Assembly: GCA_964563385.1 (NCBI GenBank)
Contig: CAZLVV010000002.1
Span: 154 to 64,153 of the forward strand
Length of the DNA stretch: 64,000 nt
Direction of reading: 5' to 3'
DNA from: an uncultured Gammaproteobacteria bacterium
GTDB lineage: Bacteria > Patescibacteriota > Patescibacteriia > 2-12-FULL-60-25
The position numbers were made by a program, and so were the translations under genes. Each line of letters opens with the position of its first letter. The stretch's first letter is position 1. A model generated the notes under the pieces. The model worked only from the letters and a program-made list of their open reading frames with translations, made no database searches and was not told where the DNA came from. Positions 13,979 to 42,840 of the stretch are shown here, one piece after another.

Positions 13979-15175
13979 TTAAAATGTTTTGCTTGTAATT
14001 TGTTTTCCAAGTGTTACAGGGATATCGAGCTCTTCGCCGTTACGCCATACTCTAAGAGTAACATTAGCGCCCGGAACAAATTGCAAAATAATATCCCCAA
14101 GATCCAAACTTTCATCTATTATATCACGATCAACTCGTAAAATCACATCGCCAGCTTTTAAACCCGCAACAGCCCCTGCTCCACCCGGTATAATTGCCGG
14201 TAAATTTACGTTCGCCGAATACAACCACGCGCCTTTTTCTGGCAATTTCAAATTCGAATCAAGCGAACGCACTAAAGAAACATTTACACTTCTTACACCC
14301 AAAGTCGCATGCTCAATTTGTTGTTTAGTTATTAAACTCTGCAAAGATCCTGAAACTATTGCTCCCGGAATAATGTTTAATCTATCGCCTGATCCGGATT
14401 CGATCAAACCGACCAATGCCCCACTAGCATCCCAAACCGAAGCTCCGGCTTCGGATTCTTGAATTTGTCCGATTGCTACAATTCTCCGACTTATATTATC
14501 TGATGAAACAGCTTCCCCCGAATTATTTGCTCGTGACGAGGCTATAACGGAAGGAATAAATTGCGTTGGTCCAACCTCAAGCCATACACCAATTCCAGAT
14601 CTTCCGGACAAAGGTTTGGCAAATGAAGCCACAGAAGCATTAGAAGCATTAATTTTTAAGAATGCAACATCCGTTGATGAATCCAAAATAATTTGTTCAA
14701 CTCTATTCATTTTTGCATCATGCCAAATATATAAATTTGAATTCAAAACAGGTTTAATCGCTTCATGCGCTGTAGCAAACCAGCCATCCGAAGTCATGGC
14801 CACGGCTCTTGCTTTTGCATCGTCTTCAGTTAAGGCTAAAACAGTTGATTTAGGTTTTTGAGCATAAACAATACCCACAGTTGATTGGCGGTCCAATAAA
14901 GATTTTGGCGCCAATCTCGGCGAACCATCAAGCATGGTTAATGGTACTAATTTTATTGTGGTTGATGCAACACTTGAATCAACTTCAACTCCGGTTTTAG
15001 TTCCTGATGCCATATTATGCGTGTGAGCAGACAATTCTCTATAATCCACTAAAATCTTATTCGCAGTTTTATCAGCCATTATCCACCCCGCCATACCACC
15101 AGCAACTATTGATAAAAAAACTTGCCCCGTTATCAATAAGGCAATCATCAAATATCTTTTTACATTGGCTTTCAT
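13979..15175 (-). CDS. membrane-anchored trypsin-like (HtrA/DegP-like) serine protease with C-terminal PDZ domain
   Basis: 398 aa. N-terminal TM. His region GWFATAHEAI, Asp region DVAFLKI, Ser region EAGASVWDASGALVGLI (diverged from GNSGG). PDZ-like AGLKAGDVILRVDRDII...VTLRVWRNGEELDIPVTLG. Confidence 0.7.
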   Translation of the reverse strand: MKANVKRYLMIALLITGQVFLSIVAGGMAGWIMADKTANKILVDYRELSAHTHNMASGTKTGVEVDSSVASTTIKLVPLTMLDGSPRLAPKSLLDRQSTVGIVYAQKPKSTVLALTEDDAKARAVAMTSDGWFATAHEAIKPVLNSNLYIWHDAKMNRVEQIILDSSTDVAFLKINASNASVASFAKPLSGRSGIGVWLEVGPTQFIPSVIASSRANNSGEAVSSDNISRRIVAIGQIQESEAGASVWDASGALVGLIESGSGDRLNIIPGAIVSGSLQSLITKQQIEHATLGVRSVNVSLVRSLDSNLKLPEKGAWLYSANVNLPAIIPGGAGAVAGLKAGDVILRVDRDIIDESLDLGDIILQFVPGANVTLRVWRNGEELDIPVTLGKQITSKTF

Positions 15176-18579: not shown

Positions 18580-18970
18580 GGGGATGCCGAGCTTCGACGG
18601 TGCGTTTCAACTTATTCTGCAGGTCGAGCTGATACAACTCGTTAAACTGCATCAAAAACGATAATTGCCAACATCGTAGAAAAAGCTAAAGCCGCCATTG
18701 CCAACGCAATGCGCGCGCCTCAAGCTGTACCGGTTCTCGCTTAAGACAACCGTCGATCCCCGTAATGAGCTCGTCATTACGGCGTGTATCGTCATATTAC
18801 GAGCTAAGGTTTACATTCCGGCGCCAATGTAAACACAAAAAGGCATGCGCCAACAGTTATCGCAACTCGCTTGCTCCAAGCGATAACTGTATATTTGAGC
18901 AAGCCAAGCCTGTGAAGATGAATAAGCGGTTCGTATCCGGACAGGGGTGCAACTCCCCTCATCTCCACCA
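18580..18970 (+). ncRNA. ssrA: tmRNA (SsrA)
   Basis: The 5' GGGGATG pairs with the 3' CATCTCC-A-CCA to form a tRNA-Ala-like acceptor with a G3:U70 wobble. T-arm GGGGTGCAACTCCCC. Internal tag frame 18667-18744 (GCC AAC ... GCT TAA). Adjacent to smpB. Confidence 0.9.
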
Positions 18971-26452: not shown

Positions 26453-29400
26453 TTAAAAACTTACTGTTCTTGGCCCAAGTATATCCTCAATTTGCTTGGT
26501 TACTTCTGGAGTAATATTAATTAACGCCGATGATCTAACTCTCCTTTGTCCATCAGCGCCATCAATTATAAAATCAACCTTCATTCCGCCTGGATTAGCA
26601 TCAAAAATTTTTTTCAATACCATAATAGTTGTTTCCGGTAAAATTGATCCCACTTTCAAAGATACAACAGTGGCTTTTTCTTTTTCCACCTCTTTAAAAT
26701 CTTCAATATTTTGAACATTGGTTCTTATTAAATCAGCGGATTCTGCGATTAATTCATCAATATTTTGATCCGTAATTACAAAAGCCGTCTCCGCCAAAAT
26801 TTTCATTTTACCCGCATCTTCTGATGGTCTTCCTGCTATCATTACAATATTTTCAGCCTCCCAACAATTAAAAGTTTCTTGCAAAACACGCGGGAACACA
26901 ATTACCTCCACATCCATTTCGCCATCTTCCAATCTACAAAATAACATGGGTTCGTTTTTCTTTTTAGTATAAATACGTTTAACCGAAGCAATAATGCCCG
27001 CAATCCTTACACGTTTTTCCTGCTTATACATTTTTAACTCTGAAAGTCGTAAAACCGAATCTCCTAATTTTTTAGCAACTTCTCTGAAAGGATGCTCCGA
27101 AACATACAATCCCAACAATTCTTTTTCCCAAGCCAACATATCTCTTTGTCTTAACTTTGGCGCTGGTGCTAAAGTTAATATCGTTTTTTGCGTCTCCATG
27201 GTTTGAGCAAATAAATTAAATTGTCCGCTAGCCTGTTCTCGCTCATTTTGTTTATGATAATCCAACAAACGTTCAATATTGTAAAACAGGTCTCCTCTAT
27301 TTCCAAAGCTATCCAAGGCGCCGGATCGAATCAATGATTCTAAAGATTTTTTATTAATGTATTTTCCTCGTATTCTAATCAAAAAATCAGCCAAATCAAC
27401 AAACTTGCCATTGGTTTTACGTTCTTTAATTATTTCATCCACCACATCATTACCCAAGCCTTTAATTGCCAATAATCCAAATCTAATAATGCTCCGCGCG
27501 CCATTCTTTCTTTCAGTAGGATGTTGAATTGAATCTTTAACCACTGAAAATCCAGCAAAAGATTCATTAATATCTGGCGGTAAAACCGTAATCCCCATTC
27601 TCCGACACTCTTCAACTTCAATAGTGATACGATCCAAATTCATGCAATCCGAATTTAATAAAGCTGCCATAAACGCCTCCGGATAATGAGCTTTCAAATA
27701 TGCTGTTTGATAAGCAATATAAGCATAACAAGCCGCATGTGATTTATTGAATCCATAAGCCGCAAATTCTTCAAACTGCGCAAAAACTTGCTCTGCTTTT
27801 TCTTGCGGTACGCCATTTCTAACCGATCCTTCAATAAACTTAGCGCGCATTTTTACCATCAATTCCGCTATCTTTTTACCCATCGCTTTACGCAATGTAT
27901 CAGCTTCTCCTCCAGTAAAACCAGCCATATCTTTACTAACTTGCATGACTTGCTCTTGATAAACCGGAATACCATAAGTTTGCGCCAAAGCGTTTTCTGT
28001 TAACGGATGAATATATTGAATTTTTTCTTTACCATGTTTACGAGCTATAAAAGAATCAATAAATTGCATGGGGCCCGGGCGATAAAGCGCCACCATGGCA
28101 ATGATATCATCAATCTTCGATGGTCGAAGCTCACGTATATATCTCTTCATGCCATCTGATTCTAATTGAAAAACGCCCGTTGTTTCCGCTTTACTTAATA
28201 ATTCATAAGTTAATTCATCATCCAAGGGAATATTATCAATTACAATTTTATCCCCATGAACAGCCTCGATAATTTCTAAGGCCTCACGAATAATTGTTAA
28301 ATTTGATAAGCCCAAAAAATCCATCTTCAAAAGCCCAACAGCTTCAGCTGGATGTAAAGAATATTGAATCACTTGCTCAACGTCCCCGCCTTGAGCTTTT
28401 TGCAAAGGCGCGTATTTGGACAAGGATTTTGGCGCAATAACAATTCCGCAAGCGTGTTGACTAGCATGTCTGGCTGTACCCTCAAGTTTAGAAGCCAAGT
28501 CCAATAATTGAGTTATCTTTGGATCGCTTTCATCCAAGCTTTTAAGCTCCGGATTCTCGACCCTGGATTTGGCTATTGGAATATTCTTGCCTTGTACTGG
28601 CGGAGGTATTGCTTTAGCAACCTTATCAACCTCTTGAAAAGTCCAACCCAATACGCGACCCACATCGCGCACCGCCGCCCTTGCCGCCATTGTCCCAAAA
28701 GTAATTATGCCCGCAACTCTATCCGCGCCATATTTTTCCGTTACATATTGAATAACATCTTTACGCTTTATATCATCAAAATCCATGTCCACATCAGGCA
28801 TGCTAATACGATCCGGATTCAAAAATCTCTCAAAAAGCAAACCGTATTTCAAAGGATCCAAATTAGTAATTTTGAGCGCGTAAGCAATAATCGAACCAGC
28901 CGCCGACCCACGCCCCGGGCCAACAATAACTCCATTTTTTTTAGCCCAAACCACATAATCATTCACAATCAAAAAGTATCCCGGAAAATCCATTTTTTCA
29001 ATAACAGAAAGTTCGTATTCCATTCGTTCCAAAACTTCTTGTGTAACCGAATCTCCATATCTTTCTTTTATGCCTTCAAAAGTTATTTTTCGCAAATAAC
29101 TCATTTCCGTTTCACCTTCAGGGACCGGAAAAGTTGGCAACAGATTCTTGCCTAGTTCTATTGTAACATTGCATCTATCTGCGATTTTTCGCGTATTCGC
29201 AATAGCTTCAGGAACCTCGCTAAAAGCCATGACCATTTCATCTGCTTTGGTTAATGAATGATCCATATTACGAATAGAAAAACGATTTGTATCCGCTAAT
29301 AATTTACCGGCATGAATGCACTGTAAAGCATCTTGCGCTTCCGCGTCTTCTGGATTCAAATAATGCGAATCTCTTGTTGCAACCAAAGGCGCGCCTGTTT

Positions 29401-30070
29401 TTTGCGCCAACTTGATAATATTATTGTTAATATGAATTTGTGTCGGTGAATCCGGATGATATACCAATTCCAAAAAGAAATTATCAATCCCAAAAATATC
29501 CTGATACTCTCTTAAAACTTTTTCGGCTTTTTCCAAATCACCTTCATTACAAGCTTTAGGAATCTCGCCCTTCATGCAACCTGATAAGGCTATTATTCCT
29601 TCGTGATATTTTCTCAAATATTCTTTATCCATTCTTGCTTTATAATAAAAACCTTCCAAATAAGAAATGGAAACCAGTTGCAATAAATTTTGATAACCAG
29701 TAAAATTCTCTGCCAACAATGTTATGTGATAAGTCCAATCATCTATGCGCGCTCTTTTATCGTGCAAAGAATTGGGAGCCAAATCCGCTTCAACACCTAT
29801 AATCGCTTTTAATCCTTCTTTTTGACAAAATTCATAAAAATCCACGATTCCGTATAATCCTCGATGATCCGTCAAAGCTATCGCGTCATATCCCATGCTT
29901 TTAGCTTTAGCCACTATCTGCTTGGGGGTGGACAATGCATCAGATAATGAATACATGGAATGCACATGCAGATGCACAAACGGGCTCTTGCCATCATTAT
30001 TCGTCTCGCATTCCGCGCCTTGCGTCGTTGAGCTAGAATTTTTAATCTTTAATTCTTGATTATTGGTCAT
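26453..30070 (-). CDS. dnaE: DNA polymerase III alpha subunit
   Basis: 1205 aa. PHP domain FVHLHVHSMYSLSDA, polymerase core (GPGRGSAAGS, PDVDMDF), OB-fold and C-terminal region. Confidence 0.95.
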   Translation of the reverse strand: MTNNQELKIKNSSSTTQGAECETNNDGKSPFVHLHVHSMYSLSDALSTPKQIVAKAKSMGYDAIALTDHRGLYGIVDFYEFCQKEGLKAIIGVEADLAPNSLHDKRARIDDWTYHITLLAENFTGYQNLLQLVSISYLEGFYYKARMDKEYLRKYHEGIIALSGCMKGEIPKACNEGDLEKAEKVLREYQDIFGIDNFFLELVYHPDSPTQIHINNNIIKLAQKTGAPLVATRDSHYLNPEDAEAQDALQCIHAGKLLADTNRFSIRNMDHSLTKADEMVMAFSEVPEAIANTRKIADRCNVTIELGKNLLPTFPVPEGETEMSYLRKITFEGIKERYGDSVTQEVLERMEYELSVIEKMDFPGYFLIVNDYVVWAKKNGVIVGPGRGSAAGSIIAYALKITNLDPLKYGLLFERFLNPDRISMPDVDMDFDDIKRKDVIQYVTEKYGADRVAGIITFGTMAARAAVRDVGRVLGWTFQEVDKVAKAIPPPVQGKNIPIAKSRVENPELKSLDESDPKITQLLDLASKLEGTARHASQHACGIVIAPKSLSKYAPLQKAQGGDVEQVIQYSLHPAEAVGLLKMDFLGLSNLTIIREALEIIEAVHGDKIVIDNIPLDDELTYELLSKAETTGVFQLESDGMKRYIRELRPSKIDDIIAMVALYRPGPMQFIDSFIARKHGKEKIQYIHPLTENALAQTYGIPVYQEQVMQVSKDMAGFTGGEADTLRKAMGKKIAELMVKMRAKFIEGSVRNGVPQEKAEQVFAQFEEFAAYGFNKSHAACYAYIAYQTAYLKAHYPEAFMAALLNSDCMNLDRITIEVEECRRMGITVLPPDINESFAGFSVVKDSIQHPTERKNGARSIIRFGLLAIKGLGNDVVDEIIKERKTNGKFVDLADFLIRIRGKYINKKSLESLIRSGALDSFGNRGDLFYNIERLLDYHKQNEREQASGQFNLFAQTMETQKTILTLAPAPKLRQRDMLAWEKELLGLYVSEHPFREVAKKLGDSVLRLSELKMYKQEKRVRIAGIIASVKRIYTKKKNEPMLFCRLEDGEMDVEVIVFPRVLQETFNCWEAENIVMIAGRPSEDAGKMKILAETAFVITDQNIDELIAESADLIRTNVQNIEDFKEVEKEKATVVSLKVGSILPETTIMVLKKIFDANPGGMKVDFIIDGADGQRRVRSSALINITPEVTKQIEDILGPRTVSF

Positions 30071-30196
30071 ATCTACGTATTCGGCTGACGGCCTAAAGCC
30101 TGCCTTAATACTTAAATTTTACTTACATCACATCTTACTTACCTAATCAAAAAACGTCCACTTTGAACGTTTAGACTTTGTAATTATGGCTAAAAA

Positions 30197-30502
30197 CTAT
30201 GATTTTCTTTTTATTTTCTTTTTTTCTCCTGATCTAAATTCATTAAGCAACCCAGTAATTTTTGTTGCTCCTTTTGCCATTCCAGCGACATTGCCAATAA
30301 TCATTCCAAATTTTTCTTTAAAATGCGTAAAATCTTCCTCAATTTCAGCTACAATATCGCGAATATGTAAAACAACATCATTGCTTTGACGCACAAGACG
30401 AGCAATTTCAAACAACACCCAACCCATAAGGATTAAAACTATAAACAACCCTGTTCCAAAACATAGCCAAAAAAATGCTTGCGCGGTTTGTAAATCTATC
30501 AT
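30197..30502 (-). CDS. small membrane protein (N-terminal TM plus charged helical tail)
   Basis: 101-aa ORF. TM FFWLCFGTGLFIVLILMGWVLF and a K-rich C-terminus. Family uncertain. Confidence 0.5.
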   Translation of the reverse strand: MIDLQTAQAFFWLCFGTGLFIVLILMGWVLFEIARLVRQSNDVVLHIRDIVAEIEEDFTHFKEKFGMIIGNVAGMAKGATKITGLLNEFRSGEKKKIKRKS

Positions 30503-30638
30503 ACTAATTTAATTATAACATGTCTCGCCATGAACAACAAAATTTACGAGTAACAAACTTGCCAAACAAACAAAATAAGCATATAGTAAATAAATAATTA
30601 TTAAACACGAATATAATTTTTAATTTTTCTTTATTTAT

Positions 30639-30914
30639 ATGTTAAGTGATATCCCCAAAAAACTAGCGGGCTTAAACCCTGAACAAATTGATCAAGAAAT
30701 TTGTCGAGCCGGGCTAATGGCCGAACTTGACGCCATTAACCTCTACGAACAAATGTCGGCATTAGCTCAAGATCCTAAACTCAAAGAAATGTTAGCTGAT
30801 ATTGCCAGAGAAGAAAAAACCCACGTGGGCGAATTTCAAACTCTTTTGCTCCAAAAAGACGCGGAACAAGTTACAGAAATGGAGCATGGTAAAAAAGAAG
30901 TGGAAGAGATGTAA
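30639..30914 (+). CDS. small ferritin-like / rubrerythrin-type four-helix protein (EncFtn-like motifs)
   Basis: 91 aa. E-x-x-x-x-x-Y (MAELDAINLYEQM) and EEKTH (IAREEKTHVGEF) di-iron-type ligand pattern. A terminator follows. Confidence 0.6.
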   Translation: MLSDIPKKLAGLNPEQIDQEICRAGLMAELDAINLYEQMSALAQDPKLKEMLADIAREEKTHVGEFQTLLLQKDAEQVTEMEHGKKEVEEM

Positions 30915-30944
30915 CCTGAACAATAGAATAATAGTAAAATAAAA

Positions 30945-30973
30945 AATCAAAGCAATTCGCTTTGATTTTTTTT
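30945..30973 (+). terminator. rho-independent terminator after the ferritin-like gene
   Basis: AATCAAAGC-AATTC-GCTTTGATT followed by T6. It abuts the degenerate terminal CRISPR repeat. Confidence 0.65.
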
Positions 30974-30974
30974 A

Positions 30975-33900
30975 TTAACACTAAGTAGAAATTTAATAAA
31001 GCTATTTAACATCTAAATTATGAGATAGCTATGTTATATCTGCAAAAGTAGAAATTTAATAAAGCTATTTAACATCTAAATTATGAGATAGCTATGTTAT
31101 ATCTGCAAAAGTAGAAATTTAATAAAGCTATTTAACTTTTGCCGCTGGAATAGCATCCGAAATCTACAAAAGTAGAAATTTAATAAAGCTATTTAACCAT
31201 GAGTTACTCGTTAAGGAGTAATTATCTACAAAAGTAGAAATTTAATAAAGCTATTTAACATCTAAATTATGAGATAGCTATGTTATATCTGCAAAAGTAG
31301 AAATTTAATAAAGCTATTTAACTTTTGCCGCTGGAATAGCATCCGAAATCTACAAAAGTAGAAATTTAATAAAGCTATTTAACCATGAGTTACTCGTTAA
31401 GGAGTAATTATCTACAAAAGTAGAAATTTAATAAAGCTATTTAACGTGGTATCCCCCCCCTATGTCTCTCATCTACAAAAGTAGAAATTTAATAAAGCTA
31501 TTTAACAAAAAGTTTTTGGTGGGGCAATTGTATCTACAAAAGTAGAAATTTAATAAAGCTATTTAACGACTGTTTCCGGCTCCTACATTTGAATCTACAA
31601 AAGTAGAAATTTAATAAAGCTATTTAACTAGTTGATTTAATCAAAACTATTGAAATCTACAAAAGTAGAAATTTAATAAAGCTATTTAACTTCATCATGA
31701 ATCAACCAATCGGCGATCTACAAAAGTAGAAATTTAATAAAGCTATTTAACTTGAAACAGGAGAAACGAAAGTCAGATCTACAAAAGTAGAAATTTAATA
31801 AAGCTATTTAACTAATGTTAATCCGCAAGACTTATTGGATCTACAAAAGTAGAAATTTAATAAAGCTATTTAACTTGTTTTGGCTGATGGTATGTCGTTT
31901 ATCTACAAAAGTAGAAATTTAATAAAGCTATTTAACAACAAATACGGAAAAATATGAAAGAATCTACAAAAGTAGAAATTTAATAAAGCTATTTAACAAC
32001 TTCTACTGACAACAACTTAGAGATCTACAAAAGTAGAAATTTAATAAAGCTATTTAACAACGGAAGTTCCATTTTGTTTTCATATCTACAAAAGTAGAAA
32101 TTTAATAAAGCTATTTAACGAGATTGAGACCTCTTCTAAACCGAATCTACAAAAGTAGAAATTTAATAAAGCTATTTAACAAACAGGAACACATCCAAAC
32201 AACTAATCTACAAAAGTAGAAATTTAATAAAGCTATTTAACTAAACATAAAAGAAATAAGAATAAAAATCTACAAAAGTAGAAATTTAATAAAGCTATTT
32301 AACTTAAAATTGGCTCATACACCTGATACATCTACAAAAGTAGAAATTTAATAAAGCTATTTAACATGTATGTAAGTCCGCTTGTGCATTATATCTACAA
32401 AAGTAGAAATTTAATAAAGCTATTTAACCATTGTTGCATTCTCTAATCCGACACAATCTACAAAAGTAGAAATTTAATAAAGCTATTTAACAGCGACGCG
32501 ACGATCAAAACACTAAAATCTACAAAAGTAGAAATTTAATAAAGCTATTTAACAGCATTAGCTCAAAAACAAACATTCAAATCTACAAAAGTAGAAATTT
32601 AATAAAGCTATTTAACTTTTTTTGTATATTTTTTCATATAGATCTACAAAAGTAGAAATTTAATAAAGCTATTTAACTCCTGTAAAAGCTCTTTACCCCT
32701 ATCATCTACAAAAGTAGAAATTTAATAAAGCTATTTAACTTTAGCTATTCTTGCTGTTGTTGGTATCTACAAAAGTAGAAATTTAATAAAGCTATTTAAC
32801 ATTAACTAATGCAAAAAAAGATTTAATCTACAAAAGTAGAAATTTAATAAAGCTATTTAACCGATGTCGGTTGAGCAAATGTTCAAATCTACAAAAGTAG
32901 AAATTTAATAAAGCTATTTAACTGAGGTGTTTTTAGTTAGACGGAATGGATCTACAAAAGTAGAAATTTAATAAAGCTATTTAACACCAAATAAAACAAA
33001 ATTTAGAATTATCTACAAAAGTAGAAATTTAATAAAGCTATTTAACTTGTGCAGTCTCAAGTAAAGTATCTTGATCTACAAAAGTAGAAATTTAATAAAG
33101 CTATTTAACAGGAGTGCTTCAACTTACGATGTTGATCTACAAAAGTAGAAATTTAATAAAGCTATTTAACCACAATGTTAGATTTAAGATTCATATATCT
33201 ACAAAAGTAGAAATTTAATAAAGCTATTTAACATTCAATTTGAAGGAAGAGAATATTATCTACAAAAGTAGAAATTTAATAAAGCTATTTAACAAAATAA
33301 AAGAAAAACAAATTCCAAATCTACAAAAGTAGAAATTTAATAAAGCTATTTAACAGATCGGACTGCTAGGTGGGTGCAGATCTACAAAAGTAGAAATTTA
33401 ATAAAGCTATTTAACAAAGAAAGACGCTAGAAAAGTTATTATCTACAAAAGTAGAAATTTAATAAAGCTATTTAACTAGACGCCTATAGGTACCACCGCA
33501 GATCTACAAAAGTAGAAATTTAATAAAGCTATTTAACCACCCACCTGGCTGTCCTGTCTTCGATCTACAAAAGTAGAAATTTAATAAAGCTATTTAACTG
33601 AAAGCTATTGCGCGGACTCGCAAATCTACAAAAGTAGAAATTTAATAAAGCTATTTAACTTTATATTAGTCCTTACCTTACGGCAAATCTACAAAAGTAG
33701 AAATTTAATAAAGCTATTTAACGACAGGGCAAATAATTTAGTTTCTCTATCTACAAAAGTAGAAATTTAATAAAGCTATTTAACCTGTGGCTTTAAGCGT
33801 TGCATACGTAATCTACAAAAGTAGAAATTTAATAAAGCTATTTAACAATAATTTGGTTCTGAACGCCGATGTATCTACAAAAGTAGAAATTTAATAAAGC

Positions 33901-34339
33901 TATTTAACATGGTGTTAGCTCTAACACTGGCTGTATCTACAAAAGTAGAAATTTAATAAAGCTATTTAACTATTCCTCAATAATCCTCTGGCTTGGATCT
34001 ACAAAAGTAGAAATTTAATAAAGCTATTTAACACCACATCCGCTACGTCCTCGAGAAATCTACAAAAGTAGAAATTTAATAAAGCTATTTAACTATCTTC
34101 CGGCGTTTCCGGCGTATTATCTACAAAAGTAGAAATTTAATAAAGCTATTTAACAAACACAAACGGTAAGAGGCAGTTTAATCTACAAAAGTAGAAATTT
34201 AATAAAGCTATTTAACACGTGGAGGATGTTATTGGTGATCCGATCTACAAAAGTAGAAATTTAATAAAGCTATTTAACGTATCGTTTTTCCAAGTTGGCG
34301 GAAATCTACAAAAGTAGAAATTTAATAAAGCTATTTAAC
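30975..34339 (-). CRISPR. CRISPR array: 55 x 36-nt repeats, 54 spacers (25-27 nt, 50 unique), type V-A repeat
   Basis: Every unit was enumerated by hand. The plus-strand repeat is ATCTACAAAAGTAGAAATTTAATAAAGCTATTTAAC. Its reverse complement is GTTAAATAGCTTTATTAAATTTCTACTTTTGTAGAT, ending in the Cas12a handle. First repeat 30975-31010 is degenerate. Last repeat 34304-34339 adjoins the leader and cas2. Confidence 0.97.
31074..31445. repeat. 2 x 186-bp tandem duplication of a three-spacer block inside the array
   Basis: Units 31074-31259 and 31260-31445 have the same order: spacer A (27 nt), variant repeat, spacer B (25 nt), repeat, spacer C (26 nt), repeat. A third copy of spacer A lies at 31011-31037. 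Confidence 0.95.
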
Positions 34340-34502
34340 TCTTGGATTCGCTTTATTAAGCAAAAAAGATACAAATAATCCAAGATTTAGAATTACGACT
34401 TTTAGCTTAATAAAGCGAATTTTAAAAAATTAAGACCAAGGTTTTGCATTTTTTAAAATAGTTTTACAGAATTTATACTTTTAAATTGTCAAAGTGCTTA
34501 TA
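34340..34502 (-). promoter_or_regulatory. CRISPR leader (AT-rich, between cas2 stop and first repeat)
   Basis: 163 bp. A TTGACA hexamer lies on the minus strand at 34487-34492. A 16-bp perfect inverted repeat ATTCGCTTTATTAAGC (34346-34361) / GCTTAATAAAGCGAAT (34405-34420) is present. No ORF. Confidence 0.6.
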
Positions 34503-34784
34503 TCAACCTATACATATTAAATCCGATTCTTCATGTTTAGCATAACCATAACGCTTTATCTTCTTTTTACAACCTTCACATACCTGAAAAATAACTATAC
34601 TATCCGCTCCTGTAAATTCTTTTTTATATCTCAATTCTACCTCAGTGAGAATATTTTGCAATACCCGCGCGCTATCTTTAATCTCCCAAACAGAGTATTG
34701 AATTCTATTACCCCATTTTTCTAAAAATCTCGCAAATCTCGCGCGTGTTTTATTATTCTCAAAATCATAAGAAACTATAAGCAT
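34503..34784 (-). CDS. cas2: CRISPR-associated endoribonuclease Cas2
   Basis: 93 aa. MLIVSYDF...ARFARFLEKWGNRIQYSVWE is a ferredoxin-like Cas2 pattern. It starts 1 nt downstream of the cas1 stop. Confidence 0.9.
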   Translation of the reverse strand: MLIVSYDFENNKTRARFARFLEKWGNRIQYSVWEIKDSARVLQNILTEVELRYKKEFTGADSIVIFQVCEGCKKKIKRYGYAKHEESDLICIG

Positions 34785-34785
34785 A

Positions 34786-35754
34786 CTATCTTATTACAAA
34801 ATCTCGTAACTCATTCTCATTATTAAGAATATAATAATAATGATCGCGTATATAATTATAAATTTCCATTTTATTTTTTAATATGGCTTCTAAAAAAATT
34901 TTCGAATATTTTACATTTTTTTTATAGGAAAGATAATATTGACCTTTAATAACTCCAAAATCTTTAGAATCAAACCTGCCTAAATTATGCATTTTAATTA
35001 ACTCTTTATCTATAATGCATCTAAAAGGCTCCATCATATCGCACGCTAAAGATTTTCTTTGGAAGAATAATTTATGATATATGCCTTTATAAGTATCAAA
35101 ACCATACAGTCGCAAGATAGAATCTACAAAATTAAACAAATAAGTATACCCCATGTCTAACAAAATATTATTTTCATCAATTTTCCCTCGCGGTATACGA
35201 CGATGCCAATTTATTTGCTTAAAATAAGTTTGAAAAAAATCTTTCGAAACCGCGCCTTCAATACCACGCAATGATGCAAAATCTTTTGCTTTTTCAATTT
35301 GACTTATAACTGATTTTTTATAAATTGTTCTACTTTCTTCATTAATCGTATCAATCTCCGCTCCTCTTAAAAGAGCCAATTGATTGCTTATTTTATTGCT
35401 TACTATATGTTTAGCAATTATTAAAGCCCGTTCTTCATCCATTGTATACTGCTTAGCGCGTAATAAATAATTCCCTTCTGCATAAGAATTGATAGTCGCA
35501 TATATTTCCAAATTTTGCTTTAATAAAAATACCGAAGCGCCAACTTTATTTAATTTTTGTAATATTTTACTTGTAATTGTTACATCACCAACAACAAATA
35601 CGGCTAACAGTTTGTTTACTGGTATTTTATTTATAGTAACGCCTTCACTCTGGATAAAAACATTTTCATTACGCAAACTTAAATTACACTTTGGTAATTC
35701 CGAAGCTTCTAGAAAAAAAATTTGTTTTTCTTTAAAGTCAGGCGCTTGTATCAT
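34786..35754 (-). CDS. cas1: CRISPR-associated endonuclease Cas1
   Basis: 322 aa. Conserved C-terminal core LRGIEG...NILLDMGYTYLF...GIYHKLFFQRKSLACDMMEPFRCIIDK (E/H/D metal site pattern). Confidence 0.92.
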   Translation of the reverse strand: MIQAPDFKEKQIFFLEASELPKCNLSLRNENVFIQSEGVTINKIPVNKLLAVFVVGDVTITSKILQKLNKVGASVFLLKQNLEIYATINSYAEGNYLLRAKQYTMDEERALIIAKHIVSNKISNQLALLRGAEIDTINEESRTIYKKSVISQIEKAKDFASLRGIEGAVSKDFFQTYFKQINWHRRIPRGKIDENNILLDMGYTYLFNFVDSILRLYGFDTYKGIYHKLFFQRKSLACDMMEPFRCIIDKELIKMHNLGRFDSKDFGVIKGQYYLSYKKNVKYSKIFLEAILKNKMEIYNYIRDHYYYILNNENELRDFVIR

Positions 35755-36317
35755 ATTTTTTTACACAATTCACAGTATATACAATTGTGGCATTTAGTTT
35801 TGTTTGTATTATAATTAGTTATAAACGGATCAAATTCGCGTATGGCTTTTAATGTGCAATTAAATTTTTCTTTTATTTCATTATCAACTTTAACTTCAAA
35901 TGTTTTGTTATCAATTAGCGAGTGAATAAACATTGCTTTAATCTCATATCCCATTTCTTCCATGCATAATTTTTGCGCGTATAACTGAAAAATATACCCA
36001 TCATAAACATGATTTACTTTTCTTTTTCTCTCAACTAATCGTTTAGTCTTTTTATCGTAAATATCAATCTTGCCAATTATTCCATATTGCTCAGAAAACA
36101 CTTCCAACCCCTGTAAACAGTCTTTCTCTGATGAGTATTTTTTTGCGTCAATACTTTCATGCGCTATAGCGCCTGCAATTTGAGGTTTTGCCTTATATTC
36201 ATTATGATCAAAGCTTTCATAAACAGCATGAAAATATAATGAATACGGACAAAAAACATAATCATTTATTTTAGATATTTGAATATAATCATACATAAAC
36301 AACCATATCCTATGCAT
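35751..36317 (-). CDS. cas4: CRISPR-associated RecB-like exonuclease Cas4
   Basis: 188 aa. N-terminal Cys (VFCPYSLYF), IGKIDIY...ERKRK (D...ExK), FQLYAQ (QxxxY) and C-terminal CHNCIYCELC Fe-S cysteines. 4-nt overlap with cas1. Confidence 0.9.
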   Translation of the reverse strand: MHRIWLFMYDYIQISKINDYVFCPYSLYFHAVYESFDHNEYKAKPQIAGAIAHESIDAKKYSSEKDCLQGLEVFSEQYGIIGKIDIYDKKTKRLVERKRKVNHVYDGYIFQLYAQKLCMEEMGYEIKAMFIHSLIDNKTFEVKVDNEIKEKFNCTLKAIREFDPFITNYNTNKTKCHNCIYCELCKKI

Positions 36318-36352
36318 GATTTAATCATTTTGTCTAGATGTTAAGGTTAAAA

Positions 36353-39300
36353 TTACCCTACCTTGTTACTTTTTTGCGCAAAATTATCCCATTCTGTATC
36401 GCTTATATTTATATTTAAATCTTTCCAAGATAATTTGTTGCAATTACCTTGTTTATTCGCATGATCCGTAATTTTTTGCAAAATAATAATGCCTTTTCTT
36501 GCAATATTATACGCGCCATTATCATCTCCATTTTTTGGAAGTTCTTTTCCAAATTTTTCAGGATTTCGGCTATCAAAAAATGGCTTCACGGGAGAAAGAA
36601 TAAAATCATCTTTACATTCATGCTTAGCCTGTTCACTATCATCGGTATTACGTATTTGACAGATTAAATTAAAAAAGAAAATTAGATGCTCAAAAAACTT
36701 TTCATTTCCTTTTGTTTCTAGTTTTTCAATCTGAGCTTTAATATCATCATTAATATTTATTCCATACTTTTCAAAAAGCTCCTTCAAATTAGCAGGTTTT
36801 GAGCTTTTGAGATTTATATTCTCTACTTTACCATCGGTTAAATTAAAATAATGAGTATATCCACCAATATTATTATTCAAGCTTTTATTCCATTTAAATC
36901 GCTCTACATTCGAGCACACAGTCCAAACTGTATTCTTTGGATATTCTTTTAGTTCTTGAAACTTTTTAATATCATATTCAAATTCAAACATTCCATTTAC
37001 AAAATCAATACGAGAAAATTTTAAAATATCTCTTTTGGCCTTTTCTGCGTTTGAGTATCTCAAATATAAATTTGGCCTCCATCCGGTTAATGGATCAATC
37101 TTAGAAGTATAGGATGCTTTAGTGTAAAAAATTATTCCTGTTTGCTTTCCCATATCTTTAAAAGAAGTAAAAGGAGCAGAAAGTTGATATGCATTAAACA
37201 AATGTCCTGCTTGTTCTGGATCTTTTTCTTCTTTATTTATTAAATAACTCAATTTATCAATAAGAGCTTTTTCAAGTTGTTGATACACGCTTTTTTCAAT
37301 ACCTCCTCGAATTTGCTTAAAACGCATATTAAGATCTTCAAAAACGATAATAGCATTATATTGGATGGCAAGTTCCGCTAACTTATGCACTACTTGAGAG
37401 ATATAACCTTTTTTGAGGTCTTTAATCCCTTCCACAGCTTGCCAGTCTTTCCGCTCTTGCAAGCGTTTTTCAGCCTTTACTTCTAATTTTTGATGATAAT
37501 CAATTGCCTTTCCTTTTTCATCCTTTCCTACTAAATTCAAACTCCCACTATCAAGAATTTCTCCCTTTTGATTAATGACAGAAAAGTATGCCAAATTTTT
37601 CTCACCCCTATCCACTCCAATAATATTTACATTAGAATTTTTTGCCAAAAATAAATTGAGGTTAGGGTTAAGCTTAAAATATCTAGCTTCATCTTTAGTT
37701 CTATTAAGCGTAATTTTAACATGAAAAAAGATTTTATCATCTTTATAACGTTTATGATTCACAACTTCTTTTCCTTTTTTATCTTTTTTTGTGCCCAATT
37801 TTTGAACATCTGTTTTTGGTCGATAAAAAATTTCCGCCTGCCCATCGAGTTTTATAGGAAAATTAAGAGAGCTATTTTCTGTAGAAAAAAGCGATTCAAA
37901 ATAAAGTGTATGCAAATTCTTTGTCCCTGTAGATCCTTTATTCCAATCTTTATTATTAATTTGAAAGAGATAAAGTTTTTTTATTTTAAAATCACATTTT
38001 GTATTTTTAAAAATTTTATAGATTCCCCTATAAAGATACTCGGCTGATATAGATTCAAAAAAAATTCTATAAAAAGATCCTTTCTTTATTTCAAGGGCTA
38101 ATTCCTTCGCTGTTTCGTATTCATTATCTTCAATTTTTTTTATAAATTTAGAAAATTCAGGGAAAAATTGTACTCGTGTTTCTAAAACTTGTTTCATTCT
38201 TTGCAGAAGCTCTATATCATTCAATTTTTCCCGATCTTCTGAATATTTGTTTCCAAAAAGACCTTTATAAACTGAACCATAAAGAGTTTTTCCATCAATT
38301 TGCTTATAAACCATTTTTTCAAAATCTTCTCCATCATCTTTATATGCTTCCGGAAACTTTAATTTATCGAATAAGGTAGGAAAATCCGTAATTCCCAAAA
38401 AATAATCTCGTTTATTTCTAAAAATAAAACTGCAATATTGCGTATTACCCTCTGGGCTATCAGGCCATCCTTTCGCAAGATTCGCTTTTTCAAAATTTAA
38501 TTTCCATTTTTCCAAATCATATGTTTTTTTTGTTAAATAATTACGTAGTTTGTTATACACCTGAACAATCTCTTCATAAGCATTTTTATAAAATTGCAAA
38601 TATCCATTTATAGGATCCGTATAAAAAACATCAAGCTTATATTCAGTGTTCCATCTTCGCTTTTTCTCTACAGAAAAATATTTTGCCATTTGATAAATAG
38701 TCAAAACAGAATCAGCATAATCTTTAATTGCAACTTTTGCTTTTGAATCTATTTTCAAATCTTCAATCAATCTTTTCAAATCCTCTTGAAAAACAGAATA
38801 TCCTATTTTTTTATTATTAATTTCTCTTTCAAAAAGAGAAGAAAATTCATAATTTAAAATAGCTAAAAATTGCTCCCAAAGCGTTCTTTCTTCAAATTTT
38901 AAAACCTCATAATATCTTTCTTTCCAAAATTTTAGCGCAACTACTGTTTGCGAATCATTTATTTTCATTGCTTTTACGGCTTCTACTTCTATTGCTTCTA
39001 AAGCGTTTTTTATATGACAAAGCGCAAAAAAATCAGGAAACGAATATCCTCCTTCCTTCTGTTTAGCCTTTTCAGCAGAAGATGTAACAATATTAGCCTC
39101 TTTAAGAACCTTATAAAGAGAGTCTTCAAAACCATCTGTTTCACTTGTCCATTTACGCGAAATTGTATTAAAAGCTTCTTTAGAAAAATAAATTTCCTCT
39201 AAATTATAATTTTCTTGATGTTCTACAAAATCAATAAAAAGCTTTCTTAAAATTATTATTCTTTTTTCCGCCTGATGTGAAAATTCTTTCAATACATTAA

Positions 39301-40285
39301 AAAATTCTTCATCATCTTTAATTTCATCAATTAAAAATTTTTCTTTTTCACCAAGGATTTGATTATCCAAAGCAATAAAAAACGGTAATTTTTCATTTTT
39401 TTGTTGTCTATGAAGGTTAATGCATTCATTAAGCCCTTTTTTCTTTTCTCCATTTGGCAAGGTTTCTCCGCCTATAATTTTATTGTAAAAATCAATTCCA
39501 TCCTGAAGCAAACAAGAATTATAAAAATCTAAAGAAAAAATTTCAGAAAGAGCTTTTTCAAAATTATGCTCAACTTCCGTAAAATCCACTTTGTCTCGCA
39601 AACTTTCAAAAATCAAAATATTTGCGCAAAATCTCTTCAAGCTATCATTAATAATACGTGTTGCCAAAGCATAAGCGGTGCCATTATCTTTATAAAAGTT
39701 TTTTCGAGTTTCAAAAAATTTATCAAAATAACCAGTAAAACCTTTCCAACTACTAAAAACAGAAACCAGTTTTCCCGTTGATTCATCTAAAATTTCTACC
39801 GGAATAATTTCTCCATCTTTTTGTATGGGGTCATTCTGATATCTTTCTTTTAAAATAGATTCAAATACAGCCTCCTCAAAAAGAATCTCAATATCCTTAT
39901 TTTTTAAACCCTTATATTTTTTTGCCCAAAGCTCACCCTGTTTATCAAAAAATTTTACCACCTCTTTTCTTAATTTTCGCTCCTCATTTTTAAGTTTTTC
40001 ATCATTTTCCTTTTTATCAATTTTCCATTTTTTAAAAATTTCTAAATACACCTCAAGCTCTGACAATTTAACTCCTTGAAGCGCCTCACGAACAAACTCT
40101 CTATGAAGACGGTCAAAATATGATTTTGTTATTTCGTATTTTCTCTGAATCGCTTTATCTTTTTCAAAAATTTTAGCATCTTCGAGCATTTTTTGTGTAT
40201 TGCCCACCGGTTTCAATTCAAATTTTAAAGTTTTACTCAAAGAATATAGATTCGTAAGGTCGCTAAAAATATTACTTGAAGACAT
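36353..40285 (-). CDS. cas12a: class 2 type V-A effector nuclease Cas12a (Cpf1)
   Basis: 1310 aa. N-terminal LTNLYSLSKTLKFELKPVGNT. RuvC-I IIGVDRGEKNLAY, RuvC-II AIIVFEDLN, Nuc-like ICQIRNTDD...FILSPV, RuvC-III GDDNGAYNIARKG. No HNH insert. Sits directly upstream of cas4-cas1-cas2 and the array. Confidence 0.92.
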   Translation of the reverse strand: MSSSNIFSDLTNLYSLSKTLKFELKPVGNTQKMLEDAKIFEKDKAIQRKYEITKSYFDRLHREFVREALQGVKLSELEVYLEIFKKWKIDKKENDEKLKNEERKLRKEVVKFFDKQGELWAKKYKGLKNKDIEILFEEAVFESILKERYQNDPIQKDGEIIPVEILDESTGKLVSVFSSWKGFTGYFDKFFETRKNFYKDNGTAYALATRIINDSLKRFCANILIFESLRDKVDFTEVEHNFEKALSEIFSLDFYNSCLLQDGIDFYNKIIGGETLPNGEKKKGLNECINLHRQQKNEKLPFFIALDNQILGEKEKFLIDEIKDDEEFFNVLKEFSHQAEKRIIILRKLFIDFVEHQENYNLEEIYFSKEAFNTISRKWTSETDGFEDSLYKVLKEANIVTSSAEKAKQKEGGYSFPDFFALCHIKNALEAIEVEAVKAMKINDSQTVVALKFWKERYYEVLKFEERTLWEQFLAILNYEFSSLFEREINNKKIGYSVFQEDLKRLIEDLKIDSKAKVAIKDYADSVLTIYQMAKYFSVEKKRRWNTEYKLDVFYTDPINGYLQFYKNAYEEIVQVYNKLRNYLTKKTYDLEKWKLNFEKANLAKGWPDSPEGNTQYCSFIFRNKRDYFLGITDFPTLFDKLKFPEAYKDDGEDFEKMVYKQIDGKTLYGSVYKGLFGNKYSEDREKLNDIELLQRMKQVLETRVQFFPEFSKFIKKIEDNEYETAKELALEIKKGSFYRIFFESISAEYLYRGIYKIFKNTKCDFKIKKLYLFQINNKDWNKGSTGTKNLHTLYFESLFSTENSSLNFPIKLDGQAEIFYRPKTDVQKLGTKKDKKGKEVVNHKRYKDDKIFFHVKITLNRTKDEARYFKLNPNLNLFLAKNSNVNIIGVDRGEKNLAYFSVINQKGEILDSGSLNLVGKDEKGKAIDYHQKLEVKAEKRLQERKDWQAVEGIKDLKKGYISQVVHKLAELAIQYNAIIVFEDLNMRFKQIRGGIEKSVYQQLEKALIDKLSYLINKEEKDPEQAGHLFNAYQLSAPFTSFKDMGKQTGIIFYTKASYTSKIDPLTGWRPNLYLRYSNAEKAKRDILKFSRIDFVNGMFEFEYDIKKFQELKEYPKNTVWTVCSNVERFKWNKSLNNNIGGYTHYFNLTDGKVENINLKSSKPANLKELFEKYGININDDIKAQIEKLETKGNEKFFEHLIFFFNLICQIRNTDDSEQAKHECKDDFILSPVKPFFDSRNPEKFGKELPKNGDDNGAYNIARKGIIILQKITDHANKQGNCNKLSWKDLNINISDTEWDNFAQKSNKVG

Positions 40286-40398
40286 ATTATTTTTTAAAAT
40301 TTATATCCTAATTTATCAAATATATTTATATATTTATAAAATTTTATCTTTTTATAAATGCATCTTATAAAGAGATAAAATATCTCATCAAATAAAAA

Positions 40399-42840
40399 CT
40401 ATCTCAACTCCGCTTCAAATTTTTCTTTACAAGCCAACAAAACATCATTAATCACTCCATCAATCTCTTGTGAGGTAAGCGTTTTCTCCATTGAACCGAT
40501 GGTTAAATGCATGGCAATAGATTTTTTATTTTCCGCAATTCCTTTGCCTGCATAAGTATCAAACCATTCAACATTCAAAACTTTTTCATTTGCCCTAAGT
40601 ATTGTTAATTCAATATCACGATATTCAATATCTTTACATACAACTATAGCCAAATCACGCTTGGATTCCGGATAAGGCATTGGCGCAACATAAGATTTAT
40701 GAGTTTTAGCAAATTTTATTATATTTCGTAATTCTAATTGAGCGACGCCAACACGAGATTCAATTTTAAACGCTTCTGTGTACTTTGGAGAAATCTCGCC
40801 CACAGTAGCAAGCAATATATCATCTTTAAAAACCTGCGCTCCACGTCCTGGATGCCAAACATCATCTTTGGATTCACGTTTCCATCTAATATCTTTAATA
40901 TCCAATGTATCAAATATATACTCAACCATGCCCTTAACTTCACGCCATGGTGTATCATTTTTGTAATCAATGTAACCAATAACACATTGTGGAGATTCAT
41001 CAGGCAAATTATCCCAATTACCCTTTTTTCCATCTTTCCTCAAATACACATTAGAACACTCAAATAATCTTAAAACATCTACTCGCCCTTGATTGTTAGC
41101 AACAGCTTCAAGAAGTTGCGGAATTAATGAAGGCCTCATTACTTCCAAATCAACCGTCAAAGGATTTTGAACGTGTAATAATTCCCTAGAATCAAAACCA
41201 GATTTTGCCAATAAATCCTTAGATATAAACGAATATCCATAAAGCTCCGTATATCCAGCACCCACTAAAAGATTTTTTATTTTATCTTCCCAAATAATAA
41301 TAGCATCAGATTTTCGAGGAGAAATATCCATCGGTATTTTTGCCGGAATTTTTCCATATCCATAAACTCGCGCTATTTCTTCCACTAAATCCCTGCTCGT
41401 CTCAATATCATGATCCCTCCACCAAGGAACTTCTGCTGTCAATTTATTTCCTAAATTTTTAATTTTAAACCCAAGATGTTTCAAAATATCAATCATTTCT
41501 TTCTTAGGAATTTCGATTCCAATCAAATCATTTATTTCATTTGTTGTTATAGAAAAAGACTCAGATTTATATTTCTTTGTTTGTATGTCCACCGGAGCTC
41601 CTACGAGCTCACCGCCAGCCAGCTCTTTAACAAGCTCAATAGCTCGAGCCATGGCCGATTCTGGCCCTATTTGCGACAATCCTTTTTCAAATCTCAATTG
41701 CGAATCAGATTGCAACAACAATTTACGTGATCCTTTTCGCACCACTACCGGATCAAAAGTCGCGGCCTCCAAAATTATATTTACAGTTTTTTCAGTTGAC
41801 CCAGTCTCTTCTCCGCCCATTATACCCGCAACAGCTATCGGCTTTTCCGTGTCAGCGATAACCAAAATACTATCAAGCAAATCATAATTCTTTCCATCCA
41901 AAGCTAAAATCTTCTCGCCCCTTTTAGCATAACGAACATGTATCGTATCGCCTGCCAGTCTATCAGCGTCAAAAACATGCATAGGTTGCCCGGTTTCGTA
42001 CATCACGTAGTTGGTAATATCAACCAAATTATTAATCGGTCGAATACCAGCAGATAGCAATCTGCGCTTCAGCCACCACGGCGATGGCCCAACCCTAACC
42101 CCATCTATCCTTGTTCCAATATATCTCGAACATGCATCTTTAGCATCTATAACCACTTTTAATTTCTCATTCTTTAACACAGGTTGCGGAATAAGTTTCT
42201 TAGGATGATAATTAAACGGTGCCCCACAAATCACAGAAGCCTCTCGCGCCACTCCCACCATCCCCATGCAATCCGGACGATTTGAGGTAACTTCAATATC
42301 CATAATCACATCGCTTGCCAAACCCAAAACCTGAGCCAAAGGCGTGCCAAGATTAACTTTTATATCTGGAATTTCCTTACTCAAATCCAATACTTCACGA
42401 TCATCTTTAACCGGAAAGGCTTCCTCTAAACCAATCTCACCGGACGCGCAAATCATGCCCTCGCTCTTTTCACCACGAATTTCTGTTGACTTAAGTTCGA
42501 TCAAATCCCCCTCCCCATGCCAACGCACCTTAGCGCCAGGCATGGCCACAGCAACCATCTGACCTTCATACAAATTAGAACCTCCACAAACAATACGACT
42601 TAATTTTTTATCCTTATTCAGCATTCCTAAATCAACATCAACGAGCTTAAGCTTATCAGCCTTGGGATGATTAATAATCTTATTGATTTTACCCACATAA
42701 ATACCATCCAAATCAACTGTAGCCGGTAAAATTTTTTCCACCGATGGCCCGCAAAGCGAAATCTTGCTTGCAAATTCTTCCGGTGTTTGTTTTAAACTGA
42801 CATATTCCTTAAGCCAGTCGTAAGATACTAGTAAATTCAT
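40399..42840 (-). CDS. pheT: phenylalanine--tRNA ligase beta subunit
   Basis: 813 aa. N-terminal MNLLVSYDWLKEY, tRNA-binding (OB) domain, B3/4, B5 and C-terminal FDX-ACB-type region. Downstream of pheS. Confidence 0.93.
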   Translation of the reverse strand: MNLLVSYDWLKEYVSLKQTPEEFASKISLCGPSVEKILPATVDLDGIYVGKINKIINHPKADKLKLVDVDLGMLNKDKKLSRIVCGGSNLYEGQMVAVAMPGAKVRWHGEGDLIELKSTEIRGEKSEGMICASGEIGLEEAFPVKDDREVLDLSKEIPDIKVNLGTPLAQVLGLASDVIMDIEVTSNRPDCMGMVGVAREASVICGAPFNYHPKKLIPQPVLKNEKLKVVIDAKDACSRYIGTRIDGVRVGPSPWWLKRRLLSAGIRPINNLVDITNYVMYETGQPMHVFDADRLAGDTIHVRYAKRGEKILALDGKNYDLLDSILVIADTEKPIAVAGIMGGEETGSTEKTVNIILEAATFDPVVVRKGSRKLLLQSDSQLRFEKGLSQIGPESAMARAIELVKELAGGELVGAPVDIQTKKYKSESFSITTNEINDLIGIEIPKKEMIDILKHLGFKIKNLGNKLTAEVPWWRDHDIETSRDLVEEIARVYGYGKIPAKIPMDISPRKSDAIIIWEDKIKNLLVGAGYTELYGYSFISKDLLAKSGFDSRELLHVQNPLTVDLEVMRPSLIPQLLEAVANNQGRVDVLRLFECSNVYLRKDGKKGNWDNLPDESPQCVIGYIDYKNDTPWREVKGMVEYIFDTLDIKDIRWKRESKDDVWHPGRGAQVFKDDILLATVGEISPKYTEAFKIESRVGVAQLELRNIIKFAKTHKSYVAPMPYPESKRDLAIVVCKDIEYRDIELTILRANEKVLNVEWFDTYAGKGIAENKKSIAMHLTIGSMEKTLTSQEIDGVINDVLLACKEKFEAELR

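Follow-up and report, generated by a model that had tools for sequence, protein, structure and literature searches.

Reading strand, structured leader and pre-crRNA processing site of a Cas12a-associated CRISPR array from a Patescibacteria-like bacterium

[quoted passage not shown] The locus raises the question from which strand this array is read, whether a trans-activating CRISPR RNA (tracrRNA) takes part, and which activity forms the 5' ends of the CRISPR RNAs (crRNAs). The handle of the crRNAs, the reading strand, the side of the leader, the absence of an anti-repeat, the side and sequence of the protospacer adjacent motif (PAM) and a recent turnover of spacers are established here. In all, the locus very probably represents an active, ordinary type V-A (Cas12a) CRISPR-Cas system of a Patescibacteria-like bacterium, with a minus-strand array and independent of a tracrRNA.

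Array, reading strand and search for an anti-repeat

The array comprises 54 intact repeats and one degenerate repeat, 36 nt each, with the following features:

30975..34339, minus strand: CRISPR array of 55 repeats and 54 spacers, read from 34339 towards 30975
34304..34339, minus strand: first (leader-proximal) repeat, the last 19 nt of which (AAUUUCUACUUUUGUAGAU) are the crRNA 5' handle
34279..34303, minus strand: newest spacer, TTCCGCCAACTTGGAAAAACGATAC, with a 25/25 match to a phage helicase/primase gene and the 5' flank TTTC
31011..31409, minus strand: oldest part of the array, with a duplicated three-spacer block and three stem-broken repeats
30975..31010, minus strand: degenerate terminal repeat, trailer end
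30941..30971, no strand assigned: 14-bp hairpin between A and T runs, resembling a bidirectional terminator, directly past the last repeat

On the plus strand, 54 copies of ATCTACAAAAGTAGAAATTTAATAAAGCTATTTAAC are found at 31038-34339, 51 of them exact. Its reverse complement, GUUAAAUAGCUUUAUUAAAUUUCUACUUUUGUAGAU, has the 3' end AAUUUCUAC-UUUU-GUAGAU, for which ViennaRNA predicts a 5-bp stem (UCUAC/GUAGA) closed by a UUUU loop and followed by a terminal U (-4.8 kcal/mol). The hairpin handle with its UUUU loop at the end of the minus-strand repeat, proposed in a preliminary description of this DNA, is thereby confirmed; the sequence given there is exact, and 30975-34339 are indeed the limits of the array. 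The 19-nt handle alone reaches z = -5.4, none of 200 shuffles folding equally well, and the repeat 3' end follows the type V-A pattern, AUUUCUAC-N3-5-GUAGAU in cas12a sense. A single A->G change (plus strand) is present in the three repeats at 31038, 31101 and 31287; read on the minus strand it is a U->C change (GCAGAU), creating an A.C mismatch that breaks the stem. In the 55th repeat (30975-31010), again in minus-strand reading, the first 26 nt are intact and five of the last ten are changed, so that it ends in TTAGTGTTAA rather than TTTTGTAGAT; the loss of the 3' half of the stem marks the trailer end. All 54 spacers have the previously described length of 25-27 nt, representing only 50 distinct sequences because the distal three-spacer block (near 31011-31409) is duplicated.

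In a Logan assembly of the same species (SRR8476232, contig positions 15940-16040), the leader, one repeat, spacer 18 of the window and the degenerate terminal repeat are present. The shortened array most likely reflects an assembly collapse of repeats and not a real deletion.

Beyond the handle, four independent lines of evidence (repeat decay, spacer turnover, related loci and protospacer flanks) agree on minus-strand reading and support it. The degenerate and the mutated repeats as well as the duplicated spacers are all located at the cas2-distal end, and cas12a, cas4, cas1 and cas2 are all encoded on the minus strand, co-directional with the reading of the array. A contig of the same species from another JGI sample (L002) codes for an identical Cas12a and has an identical leader; its spacers 3-4 equal those of the window and its spacers 1-2 do not, and this confinement of the difference to the first two spacers indicates turnover at the cas2-proximal end. 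Across 43 related loci oriented by cas12a, the repeat 3' end is always AUUUCUACU-N3-GUAGAU in cas12a sense, with invariant positions -18..-10 and -6..-1 and a variable loop and upstream 17 nt; the array lies 3' of cas2 in nearly all of them. A second hairpin considered for the variable 5' part of the repeat was rejected, as it is weak and folds in a minority of the 43 repeats.

The fourth line is provided by a viral contig (IMG/VR 3300009690_000065, i.e., IMGVR_UViG_3300009690_000065, L080), matched over 25/25 nt by each of spacer 1 of the window and spacers 1 and 2 of L002. In minus-strand reading of the spacers, the protospacers are preceded on their 5' side by TTTC, CTTC and TTTC, and the 3' flanks share nothing. 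From this we infer a 5'-TTC (YTTC) PAM, T-rich and on the 5' side as expected of Cas12a. L080 codes for a large terminase, a DnaB-like helicase/primase and an exonuclease; two protospacers lie in the terminase and helicase genes, and the third is located outside any open reading frame (ORF) of at least 150 aa, ~140 nt from the exonuclease start. The newest spacers of two populations of this host target L080, and these matches assign the virus to the host of the window locus (G+C content 43.8 % for the phage contig and 35.9 % for the window). A BLAST search of the array against GenBank phages yielded no spacer match. Repeat decay, the L002 spacers, the 43 related loci and the TTC flanks together bear out what had initially been proposed, i.e., transcription co-directional with the cas genes from a cas2-proximal leader.

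Outside the array, neither strand of the 64-kb window matches the repeat exactly over more than 14 nt (27652-27665, inside dnaE); matches of at least 14 nt were reached in 9.5 % of 200 Markov-simulated windows. The best sliding RNA duplexes with the repeat (-18.6 and -20.8 kcal/mol) are no stronger than the minima obtained with shuffled repeats (-19.6 to -25.1 kcal/mol), and an Rfam scan of 30000-41000 (E <= 10) retrieved neither a tracrRNA nor any other family. In the whole window no anti-repeat above chance is present. The preliminary description had noted no extended anti-repeat between 30503 and 40398, a negative that now extends to the full 64 kb; its view that a tracrRNA is apparently dispensable is thus backed by match lengths and duplex energies.

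Two viral sequences contain repeat-like stretches of another kind. Capybara microvirus Cap1_SP_223 (MK496751.1) harbours at ~3005-3025 a solitary perfect Cas12a handle (AATTTCTACTTTTGTAGAT) without an array, which is intergenic and located just upstream of the replication initiator gene; we take it to resemble the solitary repeat units described as RNA anti-CRISPRs. Methanosarcina virus MetMV shows a 28-nt repeat-like match at 14854-14881.

A structured element in the leader

The region between cas2 and the first repeat contains two features:

34340..34502, minus strand: leader from the cas2 stop codon to repeat 1, 163 nt, 24 % G+C, strongly structured (z = -5.1)
34347..34417, minus strand: 71-nt covarying element, P1 (9 + 4 bp) - GUC - P2 hairpin - UUUGUAUC - P1 3' arm, ending 7 nt before repeat 1

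The last part of the leader is conserved across phylum-level lineages. In the element, a distal 9-bp helix and a 4-bp A/U helix (together P1) enclose GUC, a variable hairpin (P2) and a nearly invariant UUUGYAUC. RNAalifold gave no structure for a first, wide leader alignment; after trimming of the alignment it predicted 18 pairs, 16 of them with compensatory changes. In a model-fitted alignment of 39 sequences, which by its construction leans towards the structure, 94.5 % of the cells are paired (68.8 % when shuffled, at most 57 % with slid partners) and 17 of the 18 pairs change on both sides. The P1 arms are complementary at -18.4 kcal/mol within loci versus -8.4 kcal/mol between loci, and in none of 5000 permutations was the observed value attained. 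Of the two strands, that in cas sense gives the better fold in 23 of 31 loci and has twice the number of G.U pairs (p = 0.002); a G.U pair is the commonest one at the base of P2 (29/39). With a covariance model, a single strong copy on the sense strand was detected in each of 38 loci, nine of which were outside the building set. All copies are located downstream of cas12a and, if the contig includes the array, immediately upstream of its first repeat (e.g., L022 14127-14198, L059 15948-16018), with a spacing of exactly 7 nt in 27 of 31 loci.

Leader elements are known from other CRISPR types, e.g., the leader-anchoring site of type II-A and the integration host factor (IHF) sites of types I-E and I-F, and Stringer et al. 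(eLife 2020) have reportedly described boxA antitermination sites upstream of arrays. Like all of these, the present element is conserved and keeps a constant distance from the first repeat on its upstream side, but unlike their short linear motifs it is base-paired and shows compensatory changes as well as a strand bias. Rfam does not contain it, and the literature searched contained no paper on a structured type V-A leader, which is not proof of novelty. Possible roles are a structured 5' leader of the precursor crRNA (pre-crRNA) that serves stability or antitermination, a terminator of the cas operon combined with an array promoter, or an aid to leader-side integration. [quoted passage not shown]

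Upstream of the 71-nt element, the leader contains a second conserved box (AAAACCTnAGTCTTnAT, 34429-34445, minus strand), after which many relatives have a small local hairpin; in the minimum-energy fold of the window, CCTTGG of this box pairs with CCAAGA just before repeat 1. A promoter picked by eye (TTGTAT, 17 nt, GCGAAT, with the start at repeat 1) was discarded due to its poor -10 box. Spacer 22 (32986-33010) and the P2 hairpin region of the leader element (34372-34395) agree in 21 of 24 positions (chance expectation ~0.05 such matches in the window), self-targeting being unlikely because the leader copy has no TTC flank.

Cas12a, its RNase segment and alternative readings

The cas genes and the segment of Cas12a relevant to pre-crRNA cleavage are:

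34503..34784, minus strand: cas2, 93 aa, matching TIGR01573
34786..35754, minus strand: cas1 of the type V kind, TIGR04329, 322 bits (cutoff 300)
35751..36317, minus strand: cas4 of the type V kind, TIGR04328, 207 bits (cutoff 70)
36353..40285, minus strand: cas12a, 1310 aa, TIGR04330, 735 bits (cutoff 300); Pfam REC1, REC2 (cas_Cpf1_2nd), RuvC_1 and NUC
37745..37828, minus strand: shortened WED-III segment, residues 820-847 (FYRPKTDVQKLGTKKDKKGKEVVNHKRY), the site of the RNase residues His, Lys and Lys in canonical Cas12a

Cas12a shares the domain architecture of the type V-A enzymes FnCas12a, AsCas12a and LbCas12a and can be aligned end-to-end with their structures (E = 1e-119 to 1e-126), although identity to the solved structures is low (best PDB match ~480 bits over 1300 residues). 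D892 (VDRGE) is aligned to the RuvC aspartate in SIDRGE of FnCas12a; together with E983 and D1254 it is invariant in 28 relatives, D892 being the only one of the three mapped residue by residue onto a solved structure. The order cas12a-cas4-cas1-cas2-array corresponds to that in Francisella novicida, Acidaminococcus and Lachnospiraceae type V-A loci, and a 36-nt repeat ending in AAUUUCUAC-N4-GUAGAU without a tracrRNA as well as a T-rich 5' PAM (TTC here, TTTC being used in an adaptation study of F. novicida, PMC13034035) are likewise canonical.

Closest to the window protein are Cas12a proteins (type V Cas12a/Cpf1 at NCBI) from metagenome-assembled genomes of Patescibacteria (candidate phyla radiation, CPR). 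Relatives with 47-70 % full-length identity come almost all from such genomes and share the short WED-III segment; their loci have the same handle, mostly with a UUUU loop, and the same leader element. No GTDB species representative exceeds 64 % identity in the best-matching segment, and a metagenome scan with the protein retrieved relatives at 49-61 % identity only and no further contigs of the same species. Assemblies from NCBI, JGI, ENA and Logan already contain the identical protein.

Readings other than a minus-strand, tracrRNA-free array deserve little weight. An array read on the plus strand would yield crRNAs in which the spacer is 5' and a repeat tag 3', and the 5' end of the plus-strand repeat does form this 5-bp hairpin as well (-4.2 kcal/mol); owing to its symmetry, the terminator-like hairpin at 30941-30971 does not discriminate between the strands. 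Such a reading is nevertheless next to untenable, given that four of four cas genes are on the minus strand, that repeats decay at the 30975 end and spacers turn over at the 34339 end, that the common T-rich flank is 5', as for Cas12a, only if the spacers are read on the minus strand, and that the handle is in cas12a sense in the 43 related loci. Requirement for a nearby tracrRNA, or for an RNA of short complementarity resembling scoutRNA, is very improbable as well. The obvious candidate would be the leader element, a conserved, structured, RNA-like motif adjoining the array in cas sense, whose P1 3' arm in the window contains 10 nt complementary to the repeat (GCUUUAUUAA). This arm is, however, already paired in helix P1, and the element binds the repeat of its own locus (-7.3 kcal/mol) hardly better than those of other loci (-6.8 kcal/mol; 31 loci), 271 of 5000 permutations reaching the observed value; for lack of any within-locus excess of repeat complementarity, the element was rejected as an anti-repeat. 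The 64 kb free of an anti-repeat and the fact that characterised Cas12a enzymes need no second RNA (PMC11127173) likewise argue against this requirement.

Several points weigh against an ordinary, active type V-A system read on the minus strand. A sigma-70 promoter scan of the leader found none on the minus strand in 34340-34502, promoter-like counts equalling the shuffled expectation, and the transcript ends are predicted ones. The PAM is based on a small sample of three protospacers, and IMG/VR contains no exact match to the 20-mers searched from spacers 2-6. Finally, the RNase site of Cas12a is altered. In FnCas12a, pre-crRNA cleavage involves H843 as acid, K852 for transition-state stabilisation and K869 as base (PMC11127173). 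Between FYR and KRY, the WED-III segment of the window protein is 15 residues shorter than that of FnCas12a, and its residues T832, K833 and N843 correspond to H843, K852 and K869, respectively, with K833 as the only match to a catalytic residue. Alignment by phmmer to the Fn and As PDB chains, by MAFFT with 66 loci and by profile-profile comparison (hhalign) agree on this mapping. The deviation concerns one activity and not the family assignment, the NCBI equivalog TIGR04330 still scoring far above its cutoff. Among 103 relatives, position 832 is occupied by T, Y, K, F, M or a gap and in none by His; position 843 is N, K, D, Q, H or E, and position 844 is H in 43 and K in 35 of them. The canonical pattern xxH-x5-IxNK...YDxxKDKRF is retained in seven more distant loci (L060, L061, L064, L066, L070, L074 and L076).

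These canonical loci and those with the short segment share the same handle and the same invariant block from -18 on, and the cut may therefore come from a shifted or rewired site or from a host enzyme. We lean slightly towards Cas12a itself making the 5' cut, a confidence lowered by the loss of the canonical catalytic His and one Lys. It is also possible, at somewhat below an even chance, that the 5' end does not result from the canonical WED RNase and is instead formed by a rewired Cas12a site (e.g., H844/K845 beside the K869 position, plus K833) or by a host ribonuclease, with the leader element perhaps aiding expression or maturation. This would be in line with the agreement of three alignment methods on the absence of His and Lys at the H843 and K869 positions, with the consistent lack of His at position 832 in the 103 relatives, and with the distribution of the leader element, which, counting loci with three or more repeats, occurs in 33 of 40 of the short type and in none of five canonical ones (the covariance model likewise found it in 0/7 canonical-site loci), setting the window leader apart from the canonical loci examined. 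Conversely, the handle and invariant block common to both groups fit the same cut site and the same mode of RNA binding, the near-constant presence of a basic residue or His at position 843 or 844 suggests that the base may just have moved by one residue, no gene for an accessory RNase is conserved beside these loci, and the link between the element and the short segment may reflect shared ancestry only. None of the literature searched reports that a Cas12a branch has lost its RNase residues, which does not prove novelty. Strand, leader side and tracrRNA independence as read in the preliminary description thus hold, whereas the trimming by Cas12a to a handle of 19-20 nt that it assumed is homology-based and weaker than supposed, H843 and K869 being replaced by Thr and Asn.

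As to the surroundings of the locus, pheT and pheS are located upstream and a small ferritin-like gene and dnaE downstream of the array. Elsewhere the window contains a transfer-messenger RNA (tmRNA) gene (109 bits), two tRNA genes and a 54-nt tandem repeat of four copies with 94 % identity (18580-18970, 885-1111 and 52115-52331).

Proposed working and significance of the locus

The locus may be envisaged to work as follows. Transcription of the minus strand would start at or before the cas2-proximal leader (34340-34502) and proceed to the terminator-like hairpin at 30941-30971. The last 18-19 nt of each repeat (A/G-AUUUCUAC-UUUU-GUAGAU) would then serve as 5' handle for the following spacer without involvement of a tracrRNA, and mature crRNAs should, judging from family membership, consist of a handle of ~19 nt and ~23-25 nt of spacer. 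Cas12a guided by these crRNAs would attack phage DNA adjoining 5'-TTC (YTTC), and new spacers would enter at the cas2-proximal repeat.

The window locus is one more member of the CPR Cas12a kind and nothing different in kind, and recognition of the array and its reading strand by itself adds nothing new. Its practical value lies in a fully oriented locus, a link between host and phage and an inferred 5'-TTC PAM for an uncultivated Patescibacteria-like host. Of specialist interest are the non-canonical RNase segment and the covarying leader element, both of which are branch-wide in Cas12a rather than specific to the window. It appears rather unlikely, though worth considering, that this Patescibacteria-centred branch of Cas12a matures or expresses its crRNAs unlike the textbook enzymes, by a rewired or host-made 5' cut and with a leader RNA serving transcription, stability or maturation. 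To our knowledge, self-processing of the guide array, the basis of multiplexed editing with Cas12a, is assumed to be universal in the family. If the branch devoid of the catalytic His indeed processed its guides otherwise, this assumption would change and a variant active site would become available for study. The covarying leader element, in turn, represents a candidate for a new RNA motif tied to CRISPR arrays.

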